Of a stretch of DNA of 64,000 nucleotides, positions 20,884-64,000 are shown piece by piece (position 1 is the stretch's first letter; each line of letters starts with the position of its first letter). The notes under the pieces were generated by a model that was not told the DNA's origin, searched no databases, and saw nothing but the letters and a program-made list of their open reading frames with translations. Source of the stretch: a phage. The stretch lies in sequence record NC_102531.1; one strand, 5' to 3'. The position numbers and the translations under genes were made by a program.

Positions 20884-20982
20884 GGTGCTAGGTGATGGAA
20901 TCGAACCACCTATGTATTCAACGACTACCTCGTCTATTTTCAGGATTAAAAATCCTCGCCCTTGCCAAAGGGCTTACCTAGC
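20884..20982 (-). tRNA. atypical tRNA-like gene (99 nt; anticodon loop UUUUUAA, putative UUU; roughly 30-nt variable region)
   Basis: Perfect 7-bp acceptor GCTAGGT/ACCTAGC, D-arm GCCC/GGGC, T-arm GGTGG-TTCGATT-CCATC, anticodon hairpin AGGA-TTTTTAA-TCCT; the region between anticodon and T-arm is far longer than in canonical type I or II tRNAs. Confidence 0.4.
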
Positions 20983-22751: not shown

Positions 22752-23330
22752 TCATCGTTCACAGTAAATCTTATTTAACATTACCTCATCATTTGCAGAA
22801 AGGATATCTAGATATGCATCACCAAATCTACCTGCAACAACCTCTGCATGATACATCACTTCGTTAATATCGTCAAGAGTGATAACCGGATGACCGTATC
22901 TCTCTGAGTATTGTCTCAGAGTGCGATGTAGAGAGTCGTCATCATAGGAAGACTTTTTAATATCACAAACACGACGAATAGCCTTGATGTCGAAAAACCC
23001 TGTACGATACCAACCAAGAAAAAGGTTTCGTACAGTGTCAACACCTACATCAACACTATCAAGAACCTTATCTACAAGATAGCTGTCATCCTTTGGACCT
23101 GCTTCCTTAGTGCGAATGTAGTTGCCATCTTTTCCAGGCGACATCTCCTTCTCATCCCCAACCTGCATGCCATCATTTGGCGGTGTTAGCCACTTATCCG
23201 GATGCTTACGATCACGAGCGTTAGAATGATTACGCTGGAAACCGGGCTTCCACTTGAAAGTTTTCTCCATCTGTTCTTCATTCTGATAACGTTTTGCAAT
23301 CTTTTCACGGTCATCTTTGCGTGAACCCAT
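22752..23330 (-). CDS. hypothetical protein
   Basis: 192-aa ORF with strong RBS GAGGAGG; no motif recognised. Confidence 0.5.
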   Translation of the reverse strand: MGSRKDDREKIAKRYQNEEQMEKTFKWKPGFQRNHSNARDRKHPDKWLTPPNDGMQVGDEKEMSPGKDGNYIRTKEAGPKDDSYLVDKVLDSVDVGVDTVRNLFLGWYRTGFFDIKAIRRVCDIKKSSYDDDSLHRTLRQYSERYGHPVITLDDINEVMYHAEVVAGRFGDAYLDILSANDEVMLNKIYCER

Positions 23331-23833
23331 AGCTGCCTCCTCTTCAAGTTATAGAAAAACTCACTGTATCGCTTTGTAACGAGCTTTTCTATCAAACTGG
23401 TGCGATTGCATTACCTGGTATAGTTTATATAGCTGTGGAGCGATTTAGGGGCCTTCTTGTCAGTTTCCACACATAAACTTCATCCAAGCTCGCGCGGGAG
23501 ACTCTCAACCGACTCCTTACGGCGCTGGCAAGCTTTCGTCGGTGGTCCACATCAGTGCTAGGCCTTTGGCCTGCGCTATCGCTTCGCTCCCACACATGTT
23601 AACAGACCTGCATGTATGAACTTCTGTTATTGTGTGCACCAAGGAGGCCCGGCATCTCGCCCCTCGTAGGCGAGTGCCAATGAAGGGCCGACACTGCCCA
23701 TAGTAAGTAATAAATTTAAAACATGGTACTTAGGATCTAGTATATTCTACATAAGTTAAGTATATGTACTTAGTACCATAAGTACTAGATCTTTTATTTT
23801 TTATTATTTAGTTATTTTAGTTATATTCTTTAT

Positions 23834-23940
23834 GTGTCCGTATCACGGACAGTTAGTGTCCGTATTACGGGCAGATGTGTCCGCGTGACGGACAGTAGTG
23901 TCCGTATCACGGACAGTTAATAGTATCCGTTCCATGGCGA
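23834..23940. repeat. phased array of 4-5 palindromic 19-bp sites (iteron/operator-like), consensus GTGTCCGT-ATC-ACGGACAG
   Basis: Copies at 23834, 23856, 23877 and 23898 plus a degenerate copy at 23922; 21-22 bp period; each is a 7-3-7 inverted repeat. Confidence 0.8.
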
Positions 23941-23990
23941 ACATAAAACATACGAATCCTTATAGTACAGATATTTAAGTTTTTACTGGT

Positions 23991-24341
23991 CTAACCAGTT
24001 GTTGACATCCGAATAACTTCTTCTGGTGGCAAAACTTTGGAAAATGTGCATCTTTTACCTCTCCCTTGTGTGGATGTTTCAACCACTCCTGCACATTCTA
24101 AAGTTTTAACGCACGCTGCTGCTTTTGTTTTCTTTATCCCAACATCTGCTGCAATTTTCCTTGTGCTTGGTGTGAAGCGTGAATTTCCTCCAAGCTTATA
24201 CCAGTTGTGCAGGTAGCAGTATACGATCTTGTCATACAAGTCAAGAACAACAACCTCCCCAGTTGTGTCATTCAAAACTTTTGACATAGATAGTATTTCA
24301 AGGGGGACTTTAAGATATAGCAGCTTATCCCCATCTTTCAT
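23991..24341 (-). CDS. putative HTH DNA-binding protein
   Basis: 116 aa; C-terminal segment FTPSTRKIAADVGIKKTKAAACVKTLECAGVVE looks like helix-turn-helix; adjacent to the palindromic repeat array. Confidence 0.4.
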   Translation of the reverse strand: MKDGDKLLYLKVPLEILSMSKVLNDTTGEVVVLDLYDKIVYCYLHNWYKLGGNSRFTPSTRKIAADVGIKKTKAAACVKTLECAGVVETSTQGRGKRCTFSKVLPPEEVIRMSTTG

Positions 24342-24388
24342 ATCTCCTGATTCTCCTTGTGTGGCAATTTTCTTTAAAATAGCAGGGA

Positions 24389-24943
24389 TTACTCCCTGCT
24401 GTCAATATCAAAACTCATTGCAATACGGTATGCCTCTTCTAATGGTAAGAGTCTCCCCCACACATCCCAACCGACATCAAGCTGCCTGCCAAACAACTGT
24501 TGTGTGGTTCCGTGAGCATGACCGAACAGTTGGACTGATCCGTGAGGCTTTCTGTTCCACTTTGCAAACTGGTAATGGCTCATACAGATCAAATTCTTGT
24601 TGTGGCGAAGCTCGTAATAATCTACAACCTCATGACCGAACTCTTTCATAATTCTGACAGTCGTCCTTGTGTCATGGTTGCCACGAACAAGAATAATATG
24701 TCCGTTCAACATATTTAGAATATCTGGAAGTAAGTTGTTGATATTCTTATCATTAGTGCACGCAATATCTCCCAAGTGGAACACAGTGTCTGCAGGTGAC
24801 ACAACAGAGTTCCACTCGGCGATGATTCCTGCATTCATACTGTCAAGATTACGATTATACTGAGATCTGTGTTTTTGACATGAATCAAACTCCATGACCC
24901 GCTGGTGGAGAAAGTGTGTGTCGCTTGTTACAAAGTATTTCAT
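24389..24943 (-). CDS. calcineurin-like metallophosphoesterase (putative RNA 2',3'-end healing phosphatase)
   Basis: Start ATG 24943 (MKYFVTSDTHF...); motifs SDTHF, GDIACT, GNHD, GHAHG match the metallophosphatase signature. Confidence 0.65.
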   Translation of the reverse strand: MKYFVTSDTHFLHQRVMEFDSCQKHRSQYNRNLDSMNAGIIAEWNSVVSPADTVFHLGDIACTNDKNINNLLPDILNMLNGHIILVRGNHDTRTTVRIMKEFGHEVVDYYELRHNKNLICMSHYQFAKWNRKPHGSVQLFGHAHGTTQQLFGRQLDVGWDVWGRLLPLEEAYRIAMSFDIDSRE

Positions 24944-24950
24944 ACATTCC

Positions 24951-25361
24951 TCATTTAAGTTTAATGCAGTTTTTAAGCTGGCGTTCCATACGATCCACAA
25001 CCCTGTCTGGAACATCATGAATGCTTTTATTACCGTGGCGGTTTTCAACCACGATCACGGTATAACTATACCCATTACTGATTGCCATGTCAATATATTC
25101 TTGCACATGTTTTTCTTTTGTAAACGTATTACTTACCACGATACGGTCGTATCCCATACGCATCATATCTTCTACGTTATCTTTGCACCATTTTGCTGCA
25201 AGTGTTACTTTACTTGCATCCCAGTTGTAATTTCCGTCATCGTCGTACCAGAACATGTCGTTCTCAAAATGTGGATACAGACCTTCTAAAGATAGCGCAT
25301 TTGCCAGTGTTGATTTGCCAGACCCTGGTAGACCACGCACGATATATAGCATTTTAGACAT
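24951..25361 (-). CDS. P-loop polynucleotide kinase-like protein
   Basis: Start ATG 25361 with GGAGGA RBS; Walker A GLPGSGKST near N-terminus, VVSNTF later; small kinase resembling the T4 Pnkp kinase domain (from memory). Confidence 0.55.
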   Translation of the reverse strand: MSKMLYIVRGLPGSGKSTLANALSLEGLYPHFENDMFWYDDDGNYNWDASKVTLAAKWCKDNVEDMMRMGYDRIVVSNTFTKEKHVQEYIDMAISNGYSYTVIVVENRHGNKSIHDVPDRVVDRMERQLKNCIKLK

Positions 25362-25461
25362 AGTAATCCTCCGTTTTAATTTTAATGATAGTATACCTAA
25401 CTGTTTTGTTAATTTCAAGTGTTGACACTAGGTTATTTGTGTGGCAGGATAGACTGACAAA

Positions 25462-26397
25462 ATGACAAATGAGGAACGTATGATGAAGTATTTTAATGCA
25501 GACGACTTGGTTGACAAAGGTCTTGTAACCAGTAGATATTACCCAGATCTTGGGTTAAAGATCTATAAATATGCCAGAAAAGTATTTTACAACAATTTAT
25601 GGCATTTGTCCCCTCGTTTACTAGAGTGCCGAGGCATTGTTGTCGGTAATGAAGGAAATGTTGTGGCATGGCCCTTCACAAAAGTGTTTAACTTGGGAGA
25701 AAACTCCACCAACCTGCCTGACAATAAGCTTGTGACGGCGGTAGAGAAAAAGAACGGATTCCTTGGTGTGGTATCATCTCATAAAGGTGAACTATTGTTC
25801 TCAACAACCGGATCTATTGATTCTCCATATTGTAACCTCGCAAAGGAAACCATCCAGGAGCAATGTGGTAATTTAGATCTTATCAAGAAGGTTATGGGTA
25901 ATGAAAACATGACATTCATGTTTGAAATTTGTCACCCTTCAGATCCGCATATTGTTCAGGAAGATCATGGCGCATATTTGATAGGTTGCAGATATAATGA
26001 TTCTGGAATAATGCTACCAGAGGCAGCTTTAGATGGGATTGCCAAATACCTTGGTGCAAAACGTCCTCACACTGTGCGTGAAATTCCGTTCAGCTATGCA
26101 AAAGAATTAGCTGCAGAAACAAGAGGCGAAGGGTATATGATCCGTAAGCCTTACTACCCTTATGACCTGCAGCTGAAGATCAAGTCTCCATACTATCTGG
26201 CACGGAAGGCCGTAATGAGGTGTAAAGCTTGGAAGATTTGGGATGATGATATCTTTAAACGTGTTGACGAAGAGTTTTACGGCATGGTAAACTTCATTCG
26301 TAGCAATTACACAGAAGATGTGTGGAACTGTCTCCTGGAGCAGGAACGCCGCGAGATACTTGACTGCTATTTCCACAACGAGGACTATATGCAATGA
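25462..26397 (+). CDS. RNA ligase, T4 Rnl1 family
   Basis: LLECRGIVVGNEGNVVAWPFTKVFNLGEN and EKKNGFL parallel T4 Rnl1 ALECRGIMFE...KFFNLNEN and KEDGSL (recalled); alternative start ATG 25480 has the better RBS. Confidence 0.75.
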   Translation: MTNEERMMKYFNADDLVDKGLVTSRYYPDLGLKIYKYARKVFYNNLWHLSPRLLECRGIVVGNEGNVVAWPFTKVFNLGENSTNLPDNKLVTAVEKKNGFLGVVSSHKGELLFSTTGSIDSPYCNLAKETIQEQCGNLDLIKKVMGNENMTFMFEICHPSDPHIVQEDHGAYLIGCRYNDSGIMLPEAALDGIAKYLGAKRPHTVREIPFSYAKELAAETRGEGYMIRKPYYPYDLQLKIKSPYYLARKAVMRCKAWKIWDDDIFKRVDEEFYGMVNFIRSNYTEDVWNCLLEQERREILDCYFHNEDYMQ

Positions 26398-26744
26398 AGA
26401 AGTTGATTGTGTGGCTGGATGACTTGAGAGATCCGTCAAATTATGGGCTCCCAGACGCTATTTGGCTAAAGAATTCCTCCGAGTTTATGGATTTTATTGA
26501 CGATAATAGAAAGCTCTACAGACGCGTTTCTGAGTGGCATATGGACAACGACCTTGGAGAGGTATTCGAAGGGTACGATTGCCTATCTATGTTGGAGGAA
26601 AAATTTGTATTTGGTAAGCCTCCTGTAGTTGACAACGTGAAGATTTTCGTGCATACTTCTAACCCATCAGCTGCTCGTAAATTCATGCTTGCAGCTGACT
26701 CGTTTAAAAAGTTCGGAATAGAGATTAAACAAAACATCTACTGA
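26394..26744 (+). CDS. hypothetical protein translationally coupled to the RNA ligase
   Basis: ATGA overlap with the ligase stop; 116 aa; no motif recognised. Confidence 0.5.
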   Translation: MKKLIVWLDDLRDPSNYGLPDAIWLKNSSEFMDFIDDNRKLYRRVSEWHMDNDLGEVFEGYDCLSMLEEKFVFGKPPVVDNVKIFVHTSNPSAARKFMLAADSFKKFGIEIKQNIY

Positions 26745-26752
26745 GGACACTT

Positions 26753-27514
26753 ATGCGACGACTGATCATTATCTCCGGTGCTGGTTTGAGCGCTGAATCT
26801 GGTATCCCCACTTTCCGGTCTGGTGGCACTGCAATGTGGGAGAATTTCAGCATCAATGAGGTGTGTAACATCCACACCTTCGCCAAGAACTACTATAAGG
26901 TGCATGACTTTTACAATGCACGACGTGTAGCTCTGGGCAGTGTTGATCCTAACCTTGCACATCTCCGGATCGCTGAGTGGTATTCCCGCTGGTCTGGTCG
27001 TGTGATCAACATTACCACCAATGTGGATGATTTGCTGGAGCGTGCTGGTGTAAAACATGAAGATATTTTACATGTCCACGGGTATTTGCCAGAAATAGTC
27101 TATGAGGACGATGAAGGAAGTAACGTTATTAAGGACATTGGATACTCTGAGGTAGATGCAGGAAAGTATACCTGGGTTAAGCCTAATGTAGTGTTCTTCG
27201 GAGAAGTAGCTCCGAAGTATACAGACATGTACGACCTGTTGACTTCCCTTACGAGTAATGATATGGTTATCCTTGTAGGGTGTTCCAACACAGTTATCAA
27301 TTTTAACTGGGAGCTATTCCCTGCCTGCAATAAGGGAACCAAACTACTGATCGTTAACAAATACGACTCACAGCATCTAGAGGAGAATGGCATTTCACGT
27401 AGTGATATTTACCAATATGAGGATCGCGGCATCCCAGTTTGGTTTAACGGGGCGGTTGATGCTTTCTCTGATAAAACATTCATTGAGATCGTAGAAAACT
27501 TTATGGAACTTTAA
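26753..27514 (+). CDS. Sir2 (sirtuin)-family NAD-dependent enzyme, no recognisable Cys4 zinc module
   Basis: GAGLSAESGIPTFRSGG, TTNVDDL, HVHG, VVFFGE and VGCS line up with sirtuin Rossmann/catalytic motifs; no CxxC pairs between the HG and FGE motifs. Confidence 0.7.
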   Translation: MRRLIIISGAGLSAESGIPTFRSGGTAMWENFSINEVCNIHTFAKNYYKVHDFYNARRVALGSVDPNLAHLRIAEWYSRWSGRVINITTNVDDLLERAGVKHEDILHVHGYLPEIVYEDDEGSNVIKDIGYSEVDAGKYTWVKPNVVFFGEVAPKYTDMYDLLTSLTSNDMVILVGCSNTVINFNWELFPACNKGTKLLIVNKYDSQHLEENGISRSDIYQYEDRGIPVWFNGAVDAFSDKTFIEIVENFMEL

Positions 27515-61692: not shown

Positions 61693-61854
61693 ATCTGGTG
61701 CACGATTGCATACCTTGGACAGATAATCTCGTTACAGAGCGTTTAAGGACGGTCTATAAACAAATCTCTCTTTCGAGCGTAGCGAGAACGCACGTCCGTT
61801 TTGGCCCAAATCACCATACGCTCGGATTTTAACCAAACCCTCGCGGCGTTTCTG

Positions 61855-61883
61855 TTGACACATTGCCGCTCCAGTGATAATAT
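61855..61883 (+). promoter_or_regulatory. sigma70-like promoter
   Basis: TTGACA - 17 nt - TAATAT followed by GGAGAAT RBS. Confidence 0.55.
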
Positions 61884-61903
61884 CCACACATCGTTTGGAG
61901 AAT

Positions 61904-62005
61904 ATGGAATACACAATGAGAACATTGTCCGAAGTTTTAGTGGTGATCCTGATGATCATTACGTCCATAGCGGCTGTTGCCGGAATACTCACGGGTGGAA
62001 CATGA
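61904..62005 (+). CDS. tiny hydrophobic peptide (33 aa, single TM helix)
   Basis: MEYTMRTLSEVLVVILMIITSIAAVAGILTGGT behind promoter and RBS; stop overlaps the next start. Confidence 0.4.
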   Translation: MEYTMRTLSEVLVVILMIITSIAAVAGILTGGT

Positions 62006-62217
62006 CTACCACACATGCGTCTGAAGAGACATCCGAAGGAGTGACCATATGTTGCCCATTGGCTGAGCCAGTGAAAGAGGAAAACTTCGATTCTGAAGAT
62101 TCTCCATCTTCGCTCCAGGTAGATCCTGAGGCTGATGACCTGACGTGGGAAGACATCGTAGATATCTGGTTCTCTATTATGCCTGAGCACGAAGAGTTCA
62201 GAGGTGGTAGACTATGA
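62002..62217 (+). CDS. small highly acidic protein
   Basis: MTTTHASEETSEGVTICCPLAEPVKEENFDSEDSPSSLQVDPEADDLTWEDIV...; GGGTGG RBS; preferred over the antisense ORF 61732..62190. Confidence 0.45.
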   Translation: MTTTHASEETSEGVTICCPLAEPVKEENFDSEDSPSSLQVDPEADDLTWEDIVDIWFSIMPEHEEFRGGRL

Positions 62218-62337: not shown

Positions 62338-62553
62338 ATGAAGATAGAAATATTTGGTGGAGCTGACAACACTCGTGGCCTGATTTACCTTGAATTCGAT
62401 GAATCATACCTGCCAGAGGTGTTAAATATAGACTCTGTTGCTGAGGCTTTGGGAGTAAACCCTAAAGAACTCCACTCTTGTGCTGAGATCGATGGTTGGG
62501 AGGAGACCATGAACATTGATTTCAGTGAAGTAGAGGATGAACCGCTGGACTGA
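62338..62553 (+). CDS. small acidic protein (MKIEIFG, paralog-like)
   Basis: AGAGGAG RBS, 71 aa. Confidence 0.45.
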   Translation: MKIEIFGGADNTRGLIYLEFDESYLPEVLNIDSVAEALGVNPKELHSCAEIDGWEETMNIDFSEVEDEPLD

Positions 62554-62679
62554 CACACAATTAGCTGCCTGGCTAAAGTGCTGGAGCACCTATAACACAT
62601 CTTTCAACTAAATTTCCTACCACCACAATCACTTACCTCCCACACATGACTGTTTGCTTGTTTAGTGAGCAGTCATGCC

Positions 62680-62707
62680 TTGACATTCTTGCCTATCCTG
62701 ATAAAAT
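62680..62707 (+). promoter_or_regulatory. sigma70-like promoter with no downstream ORF
   Basis: TTGACA - 16 nt - TAAAAT, preceded by inverted repeat CATGACTG...CAGTCATG; downstream 300 nt lacks a convincing ORF. Confidence 0.45.
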
Positions 62708-64000
62708 TAAGTTCTTCTCTTTTCTTTTACCGAGTAATTCGGGTTTTCTGTTCTCTTCGGTTTGAAGGGGTATGGAGATACACCTGAGTGAACAGGGTGA
62801 ACAACCGAACATTTGGCTATGGCATTAGCATGGCGAAGCGGACGGGTGACGAAAGAGGGGCCGGAGGACACCAGTCACTGCCATATGATATATGGGTGAT
62901 AACCTGAAGAGTCTGAATAAGTGTTTAAGTACCAGTCAGAGGAAAAGGTGAATGGTAGCCGAAGGGGGAGGGGGGTTTCTTGTATCTTTAATTTGTATAT
63001 TATGTATACACTTGTAAACCAATCTCATCTGAATCTGTTTACCACACAAAGCGGATAGAGACAAATATTGCCTATTAAACTTGAATTATTTATAGAAAAT
63101 ACCACAACACCACTTAAGTCTTTGATTTTACACACAAATCCTACAAATATCCTACCTTCATATTTAACATACCTGTAACATATTCCATACTCTACCTGCC
63201 TGATCAATTTCCCCAACTACATACCCATATTTTCCCTGTCTGTACTACCCATGCCCCGCCGGGAGTCCCGTCATATCTGGCTTTCCAGCAAATATCACAC
63301 CCACAAATATCATTGCCTGAAGAGGGTTTCATCCCATAATACCTGCCTTGCCTGAAGAGCGCTTCATACACCACGTAAATTTTTTAATTGACCCCTCCCC
63401 GCCGCCGGAGAGGTTGGCTTTTCCCACACAGACCTGAAGAGTCAGCCAGAAATATCTGAACAGGTCCAGTTCTGCCACGATTTTGACCTGACATACAGGA
63501 GCGCTGCCCTGTCAGGAGCCGTAGCGACTGGAGTGCTGCCAGGCGGACGGAATGGGAATACTTCTCATTCTTATAATAATTCTCAAATATCGAGGCAGTG
63601 AGGCAAATTAATAGGCCAGGCCGTTCACACAGTGGCACAACATTTGCAACCTATCTTGGGCGGGTGAATGAGAATACCTATCATTGTGAGAACTGTTATC
63701 ATTACGGGCAATTTAACATAATACCCATTATGCGCACCACTGGCGATACATACAGGGATTGATAACATGGGTTACTGTTTACGCACATAACAATTATATT
63801 TCTTACTATTTGTGTGGGATATAGTTAGCAGCCGATAGATTAGATATTAACCTGCAGACTTCTGACCGTCCAGACGTCTAAACGCCCACACACCAAGGAT
63901 TATACATACACTCCTGAATGTAAACAGGGCCGCAAAAATGCTACCATACAAGCTTGTAAATTTTCCATGCAGCACTTGACAAAGAGGAGAAAAACTTGTC

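Follow-up and report, generated by a model that had tools for sequence, protein, structure and literature searches.

Organization of the locus

The 64,000-nucleotide stretch of phage sequence record NC_102531.1 analyzed in this study (hereafter, the window) belongs to a Vequintavirus, an rV5-like coliphage, and the locus of interest is a gene-free region of 660 bp (23331-23990) together with the genes that flank it. A segment of ~1.2 kb around this locus has counterparts in 118 phage records, with identities of 90-99.9%, and every one of these records is rV5-like. The genes of the locus are all encoded on the minus strand, and their transcription order is a metallophosphoesterase gene, a gene for a 116-amino-acid (aa) winged-helix protein, the gene-free region, a 192-aa gene and then small open reading frames (ORFs), a tRNA cluster, spanins and the terminase, whose gene lies ~4 kb downstream of the locus. 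As the initial annotation had stated, no ORF of 60 codons or more is contained in the region: the largest one located fully inside encodes 56 aa (23425-23595, minus), and a 69-aa shadow ORF (23186-23395) merely overlaps its left edge. The region holds an array of palindromic iterons, an AT-rich block and a GC-rich block, and we interpret it as, on balance, probably an iteron-type replicon of the RepA_N class that forms a self-contained module and has a structured RNA domain attached to it. The main features are given below in the order in which they would be transcribed; variation among relatives was measured on a 12-sequence alignment, in which variable columns were counted per 30.

23991-24341, minus strand: gene (rV5 ORF79/gp075) for a 116-aa stand-alone winged-helix domain of the RepA_N type, the presumed iteron binder, assigned from PHROG, PDB and fold matches
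23920-23940: ATAGTATCCGTTCCATGGCGA, a decayed fifth iteron with one half-site left, TATCCGT; the most variable stretch in the relatives (15 of 30 columns)
23834-23919: four dyad-symmetric iterons, TGTCCG-N5-CGGACA, whose centers lie 22, 21 and 21 bp apart (two helical turns)
23792-23833: 42-bp tract of 7% GC that abuts the iterons, a candidate DNA-unwinding element; two TTTAGTTAT 9-mers (23807 and 23816); strongly conserved
23701-23791: nearly invariant block of 25% GC with interleaved inverted repeats, ATGGTACTTAG (23723) with CTTAGTACCAT (23769) and GATCTAGTA (23734) with TACTAGATC (23783)
23646-23689, minus strand (predicted): extended hairpin, the first element of the GC-rich block on this strand; on the plus strand GGCCC, internal loop, GGCA-(T bulge)-CTCGCC, loop, GGCGAG-TGCC, GGGCC
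23599-23640, minus strand (predicted): variable middle hairpin (inverted repeat I5), with the apex UGCA-UAC(A/G)-UGCA in most relatives
23492-23596, minus strand (predicted): closed structured domain of ~105 nt (RNAalifold consensus), the most conserved part of the GC-rich block, with 2 variable columns per 30
22752-23330, minus strand: ORF77 of rV5, 192 aa, function unknown (PHROG 12226); with transcription from upstream, the GC-rich block would form a long leader for it

The iteron array and the AT-rich block

The array is built from a 22-nt unit present in four copies, which start at 23834, 23856, 23877 and 23898 (spacing 22, 21 and 21) and which contain 17-bp palindromes at 23835-51, 23857-73, 23878-94 and 23899-915. 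Half-sites of 6-7 bp flank a center of 3-5 bp, which is the semi-palindromic form expected of RepA_N iterons, and the copies provide the at least three direct repeats in helical phase that characterize an iteron origin. When up to two mismatches are allowed, these four sites are the only ones in the window, and when up to one mismatch is allowed, none occurs in the remaining 73 kb of JLBYU08, a genome of 99.9% identity. Four phased palindromes within 81 bp cannot have arisen by chance. The possibility that the palindrome serves a genome-wide regulon was considered and rejected, given that no further sites exist in this genome equivalent.

Among the relatives, the number of iterons is 2, 4 or 6 and changes in steps of 42-43 bp, corresponding to two units; four is the number in most phages, and O157 typing phage 14 carries six. 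The half-sites are invariant, and the variation falls in the central spacers. These observations bear out the four near-identical phased palindromes and one degenerate copy that had been described from the sequence; the fifth copy, which retains a single half-site and is hypervariable, is best regarded as decayed. The iterons lie at least 75 bp past the stop codon of the winged-helix gene. Three independent assemblies (the Logan contigs L008 and L009, and MG065672.1 at its position 1) end inside or right after the array, most likely through breakage at a tandem repeat of variable copy number; as evidence for a packaging end these ends were set aside, since an assembly artefact is expected at tandem repeats.

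The AT-rich block, reported initially with inverted repeats of its own, is present with both pairs (GATCTAGTA/TACTAGATC and ATGGTACTTAG/CTTAGTACCAT). Its GC content is 19.5% over 23701-23833, made up of 25% in 23701-23791 and 7% in 23792-23833, compared with 43% for the window. Conservation is high throughout, with 2-3 variable columns per 30 vs 6-7 per 30 in the flanking coding DNA. The 25%-GC part carries two GATC sites and the motif ATGGTACTWAG, which is unique in the window, and is a candidate for protein-binding sites or an unrecognized promoter. By composition, the tract adjoining the iterons corresponds to the AT-rich segment of an origin, where melting would putatively occur, and the abutment of phased iterons on a 7%-GC tract gives the locus a classic origin layout.

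The neighboring winged-helix protein is of the initiator type

The helix-turn-helix (HTH)-like gene that had been pointed out next to the repeats does exist, on the minus strand, and its 116-aa product is a winged-helix protein; the matches obtained identify a RepA_N-type initiator domain rather than a generic HTH regulator. The protein matches PHROG 12838, 'replication initiation protein', with E=5e-80, and other initiator or O-like PHROG families weakly (O-like, E ~0.03). In a sequence search of the PDB, the sole significant match was 4RO3 (E=3e-6), which is the RepA N-terminal domain of PLE, a satellite of Vibrio cholerae (PMC7145576). An AlphaFold (AF2) model built from a small alignment reached a pLDDT of 78.8 (a single-sequence model, at 39, was unusable), and a Foldseek search with this model again returned 4RO3 as the best match (E=4e-5, TM 0.65, ~28% identity), followed by the S. 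aureus plasmid RepA initiators 4PQL, 5KBJ (a Rep-DNA complex), 4PT7 and 4PTA. The locus thereby encodes, close to the iterons, a presumptive cognate initiator with a RepA_N-type N-terminal domain, and on the PHROG 12838 and 4RO3/RepA_N matches we read the protein as a DNA-binding domain of the initiator type that stands alone. Neither the Pfam scan nor the AlphaFold model revealed a nuclease or other effector domain in it.

The family is tiny. A word-indexed search of 5.8 billion proteins yielded five clusters only, all at 87% identity or more, and an exhaustive HMMER search added a few remote HTH_36/DUF6945 proteins and low-complexity noise; in IMG/VR, there was no relative of either the protein or the GC-rich element.

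As for transcription, the sole promoter-like site in the promoter scan (24405-24376) precedes the winged-helix gene. From this promoter to ORF77 no terminator is predicted, and read-through across the gene-free region is therefore possible. Scans for sigma-70 promoters and terminators gave none inside the gene-free region, and the rV5 'late promoter' motif TGGTAAAATA has no occurrence there.

These results bear on whether the locus is an operator array with no replication role, in which the winged-helix protein would be a transcription factor and the palindromes a roadblock or operator, acting on read-through or on a promoter in the AT-rich block and governing expression of the leader, ORF77, the tRNA genes and the late genes. 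Public records are divided, some already naming the gene 'replication initiation protein' and marking the repeats, and many others labeling it 'putative transcriptional regulator'. The modeled fold is also near the MarR, CodY and SlyA regulators, the site is enclosed in a long minus-strand transcription unit, with early-type genes on one side of it and the tRNA, lysis and terminase genes on the other, and the module is dispensable in related genera. Iteron-binding initiators, moreover, often autoregulate too. However, the best sequence and fold matches are to initiators and not to regulators, neither a sigma-70 nor an rV5 late promoter consensus is located at or next to the repeats, and the repeats follow the stop codon of the gene instead of occupying its promoter. 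An operator would also leave unexplained the 7%-GC tract abutting phased iterons and the parallel with plasmid replicons described below. An operator array is the main alternative to the replicon; we regard an operator without a role in replication as unlikely, and the sequence evidence supports the origin reading over it.

A further suggestion in the initial annotation was a partition site. A Pfam scan of six flanking genes gave no ParA/ParB-type match; two of the genes, including ORF77, had no Pfam match at all, and the remaining ones encode the phosphoesterase, a P-loop kinase-like product and small proteins whose function is unknown. A parS-type site is therefore not supported by the genes scanned. 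Of the three roles proposed at the outset, origin, partition site or regulatory site, the first is the one favored by the RepA_N fold, the layout and the plasmid parallel.

The GC-rich block contains a conserved folded element

The GC-rich block (23440-23700) has 56% GC, as described initially, and the core of the block varies in only 2 columns per 30, which is below the level of the coding DNA on either side. The coding explanation was examined through the distribution of variable columns over codon positions. In rV5 ORF78, the 56-aa ORF at 23425-23595 on the minus strand, the counts are 10/8/10, and in two other small ORFs of the region they are 5/7/7 and 6/6/6, so that protein coding does not explain the conservation of any of the three. 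Without codon periodicity, ORF78 is rejected as a gene. This ORF is annotated in rV5 and in several other records and is open in all relatives but one; even so, that it or a neighboring small gene accounts for the block is scarcely credible, as the variation is flat with no third-position excess, there is no PHROG match, the start codon is GTG, the conserved sequence continues past the ends of the ORF, with paired helices to account for it, and the homologue carried by plasmids (see below) breaks the frame through large insertions.

The pairing evidence comes from comparison with relatives, which include both phages and the E. coli plasmids described in the next section. The 5' extended hairpin (23646-23689) is kept in all phages, and its copy in plasmid L015 shows two compensatory changes of G:C to U:A pairs; the simulated chance of this pattern is ~2e-4. 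The middle hairpin appears dispensable, because rV5 itself has 18 nt of it deleted. In the ~105-nt domain, the RNAalifold consensus on the minus strand predicts a closing helix, P1, in which GUGUGGGAG pairs with CUCCCGCGC and which joins the two most conserved motifs. The interior of the domain comprises a GGCC-AAA-GGCC hairpin and helix b (on the plus strand, ACCGAC at 23508-13 with GTCGGT at 23538-43), topped by an apical CUUGC/GUAAG stem. Helix b changes from ACCGAC/GTCGGT in the phage to GCTGCC/GGCAGC in plasmids, which amounts to three double changes; across phages and plasmids its pairs alternate among A-U, G.U and G-C, between C-G and U-A, and between A-U and C-G, the first pair being G.U in one phage lineage, and in plasmid L039 this position is taken by an 8-bp helix of unrelated sequence. 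The simulated chance of the helix b pattern is ~6e-6. The structure is thus conserved through compensatory substitutions, in few lineages, and differences of this kind indicate RNA or a single-strand structure and not recognition of double-stranded DNA.

With respect to the strand, P1 contains two G.U pairs that would become A.C mismatches on the plus strand, and the minus strand folds better than the plus strand (alifold energies of -36.6 vs -31.1 kcal/mol on the domain alignment; single-sequence z of -1.6 vs -0.5). Both observations favor the minus strand. The most likely explanation of the block is a folded element under selection that is read as RNA in the direction of the genes, and the assignment to the minus strand is made with moderate confidence.

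Several points weigh against the RNA part of our interpretation. Folding of the single sequence barely beats shuffled controls (z of -1.8 and -2.1), so that the 'many local hairpins' reported initially are not significant on their own, even though the composition was correctly described, and support for structure derives from the relatives. The evidence for the strand is modest and the single-sequence z-scores are weak; some end pairs of helix b favor the plus strand, so that a strand call based on wobble pairs is contradictory, a conflict partly settled by the alifold consensus. In addition, the covariation comes from few independent lineages, namely the phages, the plasmid consensus and L039. 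Nevertheless, the compensatory changes together with the missing coding signature support the earlier proposal of a structured noncoding RNA.

The covariance-model scan recommended for the block gave no credible family: with Rfam 15 at gathering thresholds, applied to the whole window, nothing matched in the region, and the best match at permissive thresholds, applied to the region, was rli43, which scored 21.9 bits vs a gathering threshold of 100. ARAGORN found no tRNA or tmRNA in the region. The folded element is absent from Rfam and, as far as publications were found, new to description. Phage vB_Eco_Alma (L002, OV101294.1) is alone in having four single-base indels in the GC-rich block, one of them in the invariant TCCACA, and these are probably sequencing errors rather than biology.

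A family of 13-kb E. coli plasmids shares the element

A BLAST search of the GC-rich block against E. coli genomes and plasmids revealed matches in gene-free DNA of circular plasmids of 13.2-13.7 kb. The shared pieces correspond to window positions 23485-23552 (84% identity) and 23642-23695 (87%). The element was found in 7 of 5,426 complete E. coli genomes, each time on a plasmid and never on a chromosome. Pattern scans for the conserved cores in genome and metagenome collections gave mostly chance matches, the real ones being L120, a plasmid-like contig, and L153, an rV5-like contig. The plasmid loci include those listed here, to which a site that the phage shares with them is added.

L015: NZ_CP020521.1
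L036: NZ_CP178698.1
L037: NZ_CP035869.1
L038: CP148565.1
L039: CP134895.1
L016: NZ_CP043822.1 (39.6-kb trimer)
L120: one metagenome contig
Window 23398-23417: 20-bp quasi-palindromic site TGGTGCGATTGCATTACCTG, 19/20 identical, in inverted orientation, to plasmid CAGGTAATGCAATTGCACCA; a similar copy lies at window 61695-61718

Among the products of the plasmids are a major capsid protein, a tail protein that is Dit-like (50% identical to the product of a window gene), a tail-completion-like protein (45%), a 706-aa tape-measure protein (25% identical), a winged-helix protein of 288-306 aa and small HTH proteins. The likeness of the GC-rich block (84-87% at the nucleotide level) thus compares with 25-50% amino-acid identity for the shared genes. 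Each plasmid has a gene-free region of 2.2-2.9 kb, in which a promoter and an operon with the winged-helix gene are followed by the GC-block homologues, then by hairpin cassettes punctuated by CCCACACA, and finally by dyad iterons. The cassettes vary in number, order and orientation, and those with three hairpins covary in all three stems (TTAGCC/GGCTAA vs TTAGCT/AGCTAA; GTGCC/GGCAC vs GTCAC/GTGAC). The iterons consist of three tandem copies at 23 bp, another at 43-44 bp and some outliers.

The initiator-like proteins of the two types of element are related. An hhalign comparison shows homology between the family of the 116-aa phage protein and the N-terminal part of the 288-306-aa proteins encoded by the plasmids (probability 95.8%, E=8e-9), and both have some similarity to a common PHROG initiator family; BLASTP of the 116-aa protein against a plasmid 303-aa protein was negative, so that the homology is seen by profile-profile comparison only. 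Within the plasmids, the iteron sequence tracks the recognition-helix and wing residues of the plasmid's own protein: proteins of the KTVR..VKR type go with CGG(A/T)AA..TTACCG iterons, and those of the VKSKGKS type with iterons of the ..ACAGGT type. None of the seven plasmid iteron types examined resembles TGTCCG-N5-CGGACA. Because the plasmids replicate autonomously and no other candidate initiator or origin was found in them, the iteron array with the 288-306-aa protein is their likely replicon.

Phage and plasmids are alike in having the folded element and dyad iterons, arranged in the same order, a homologous initiator-type N-terminus, the CCCACACA punctuation, the 19/20 site and structural genes related to those of Vequintavirus. 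They differ in iteron sequence and period (23 bp in the plasmids), and in that the plasmids have a full-length protein (288-306 aa), complete with a C-terminal part, encoded downstream of the element, not upstream, carry extra hairpin cassettes and lack a homologue of the phage AT-rich block. By this comparison, the phage locus is a shortened relative of the design seen in the likely plasmid replicon, and the 13-kb plasmids have the look of a phage satellite, plasmid-borne and undescribed. When the literature was searched for satellites of rV5 or Vequintavirus, nothing relevant was returned, and we found no publication analyzing the locus, the folded element or the plasmids, although the gene label and the repeats are already in public records. 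A tentative extension is that the GC-rich block represents a new RNA family acting as a 'handle' shared by rV5-like phages and plasmid-borne satellites, which might couple satellite replication or expression to a helper-encoded factor, the phage locus then being both origin and plug-in point for the satellite.

Other traces of plasmid-like sequence are present in the window. A second ORF-poor region (62553-64000), which may be the 'non-coding' box of the rV5 genome map, contains a cluster of CCCACACA and a plasmid-type two-hairpin cassette (62553-62599), a strong sigma-70-like promoter (TTGACA at 62680-85, a 16-nt spacer and TAAAAT at 62702-07), and a 24-nt patch (63568-63591) that is 92% identical to all plasmids. 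Beside it, a 60-nt patch at window 62021-62080 is 80% identical to L015 10882-10938, within the linker of the initiator-like protein; in the window it falls in the plus-strand ORF 61801-62217, which encodes an acidic product with 'EGVT...PVKEE', and the similarity suggests a surviving fragment of a related gene. The 8-mer CCCACACA (UGUGUGGG on the other strand), which we take to match boxC in the rrn leader of E. coli, occurs 12 times in the window vs 2.1 expected, and CCACACA occurs 17 times vs 1.4 expected in plasmid L015, mostly in intergenic positions and often directly 5' of gene starts. An example lies at 24352-24358, before the winged-helix gene, and the CCCACACA/UGUGUGGG motif pairs with CUCCCGCGC in the predicted RNA domain.

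The relationship with the plasmids raises two further explanations for the locus. The first is a module of helper-satellite conflict, in which the phage would have taken a satellite initiator domain and a piece of replicon to interfere with the 13-kb plasmids, to compete with them or to be exploited by them, possibly by titrating a shared factor through the common RNA or by occupying Rep sites. There is a precedent in the lytic helper phage ICP1, which captured the RepA_N DNA-binding domain of PLE for its nuclease Odn; the N-terminal domain of Odn is 42% identical to the PLE1 RepA_N domain and targets PLE iterons (PMC8263062). The phage protein, too, is an N-terminal domain alone, homologous to plasmid proteins, the module is genus-specific, and the identity of the GC-rich block is well above that of the shared genes. 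Odn, however, is fused to a T5orf172/GIY-YIG nuclease and is directed at satellite iterons, whereas the 116-aa protein lacks any nuclease or effector domain, and the palindromes it presumably binds belong to the phage genome itself and are unlike any of the plasmid types. Mobilization of the plasmids by rV5-like phages, or interference between the two, is itself putative, and we consider a conflict module distinctly improbable.

The second explanation is a packaging (pac) region, with the repeats as sites for the terminase small subunit, shared so that satellites are packaged. A satellite must share the packaging signal of its helper. The terminase gene is ~4 kb downstream, and the sequences of two metagenome contigs and a GenBank record terminate within the array. 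Vequintaviruses are circularly permuted and use headful packaging (PMC8407724, PMC13211470). What phage and plasmids share, however, is the folded GC-rich block with its compensatory differences, and not the iterons; contig ends at tandem repeats are an expected artefact of assembly, and the adjacent protein is initiator-like, not terminase-like. A pac region is accordingly very improbable.

A candidate origin: proposed mechanism and points against it

Returning to the replicon reading, the order on the minus strand is initiator-domain gene, iterons, AT-rich tract, folded RNA and ORF77, and the following steps are those we infer from this arrangement. Dimers of the 116-aa protein would bind the four 17-bp palindromes, and because the sites are two helical turns apart, all dimers would line up along the same side of the helix. 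The resulting nucleoprotein array would then, as at other iteron origins, strain and open the 42-bp tract of 7% GC. As the protein is devoid of a C-terminal domain, loading of the replisome would have to rely on the replication proteins of the phage, and we speculate that its own primase, helicase and PIF1/RecD-type helicase serve this purpose. A parallel exists in PLE, where replication driven by the RepA_N initiator takes place only while a helper phage is infecting the cell. The GC-rich block would be a folded RNA, most likely of the minus strand and co-transcribed with the flanking genes, consisting of a 5' extended hairpin, a dispensable middle hairpin and the ~105-nt closed domain. The roles we favor for such an RNA are an origin-proximal transcript that activates or primes the origin, or control of the downstream operon.

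A number of observations speak against an origin at this locus. The protein is a single winged-helix domain in the model and has no C-terminal domain that would engage the replication machinery; Pfam RepA_N itself does not match it, and two other families narrowly miss their cut-offs, DUF6945 with 27.4 bits (cut-off 28) and HTH_36 with 24.5 bits (cut-off 25). Phage navn has two iterons only. A search for DnaA boxes and IHF sites found no convincing one near the iterons, the near-consensus matches (one mismatch each) being confined to the GC-rich block, 350-440 bp away. The replication genes are ~65 kb from the locus. In the rV5 genome paper the origin could not be defined, and skew analysis tracked transcription only (PMC3606486); the GC skew and composition profile of the window agrees, marking only the switch in transcription direction near 25-26 kb. 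Finally, the module occurs in no genus other than Vequintavirus, and a related Klebsiella phage does not have it next to the orthologous phosphoesterase gene, so it cannot be the ancestral origin of the subfamily.

Comparison with known replication systems

Lambda-type and RepA_N-type origins offer the most informative comparisons. The phage lambda ori comprises four dyad-symmetric iterons and a ~40-bp AT tract, and is bound by the O protein, whose winged-helix N-terminal domain binds as a dimer. The likeness to the present locus, four phased dyad iterons beside an AT tract, is functional, with no significant sequence similarity. In lambda, the ori lies inside gene O and the C-terminal domain of O recruits P-DnaB, whereas the phage sites are outside the gene and the P-binding domain is missing.

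In Gram-positive plasmids of the pSK41 type, the iterons are located inside rep. The initiators of this group (pSK41 and pTZ2162 RepA; 4PQL, 4PT7, 5KBJ) have a winged-helix N-terminal fold like that of the phage protein, which differs in that Pfam RepA_N does not match it and in having no host-specific C-terminal domain. RepA_N plasmid initiators bind as dimers to semi-palindromic iterons (summarized in PMC7145576). The closest solved relative is PLE RepA, which recognizes as a dimer the semi-palindromic iterons of the PLE origin, located in a gene-free region; this initiator is necessary for replication, and sufficient only during helper-phage infection (PMC7145576). Both systems have direct, internally palindromic iterons in gene-free DNA; the phage locus differs in encoding the N-terminal domain by itself, at ~28% identity, in belonging to a lytic myovirus and not to a satellite, and in having four 17-bp palindromes at 21-22 bp vs three ~30-bp repeats. 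Overall, the locus presents most sequence-level features of a RepA_N origin, lacks the C-terminal domain, and is not of the lambda type.

Other features and records

Between the 20-bp site and ORF77 there is one further conserved element, located just upstream of the ribosome-binding site of the next gene.

23351-23392, minus strand: inverted repeat ATAGAAAAACTC / GAGCTTTTCTAT, 92% complementary, nearly invariant in relatives

Directly upstream of the module (24389-27500) is an RNA-repair-like gene set composed of the metallophosphoesterase, a P-loop kinase (AAA_33/Zeta-toxin-like) and a T4 Rnl1-like RNA ligase, after which come two SIR2-family genes. Downstream, the phage tRNA cluster includes an oversized tRNA-like gene (97-99 nt; 20884-20982, minus), to which ARAGORN assigns a 4-base anticodon, 'atcc', and which has a weak Rfam score of 35.5 bits; it could be an intron-containing or frameshift-suppressor-like tRNA. 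Among the records that match the locus, 18 entries MG0656xx labeled 'Campylobacter phage' are 95-99.6% identical to rV5-like coliphages across it, and the PLSDB entry CP057073.1, a 137.6-kb 'E. coli plasmid', is an rV5-like phage genome; both are probably mislabeled or contaminant records.

Significance for rV5-like phages

No origin has been defined so far for the rV5-like phages, which are widely used in E. coli O157 typing, in biocontrol and in phage-therapy collections, and the locus described here provides a precise candidate. If the assignment is correct, it would represent an initiator domain of the RepA_N type, accompanied by iterons of its own, in a Gram-negative lytic myovirus, where PLE had been described as the first functionally characterized Gram-negative RepA_N initiator. 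Should the 13-kb plasmids prove to be satellites of Vequintavirus, they would constitute a new E. coli helper-satellite system, for which the shared RNA and origin architecture would serve as the entry point.

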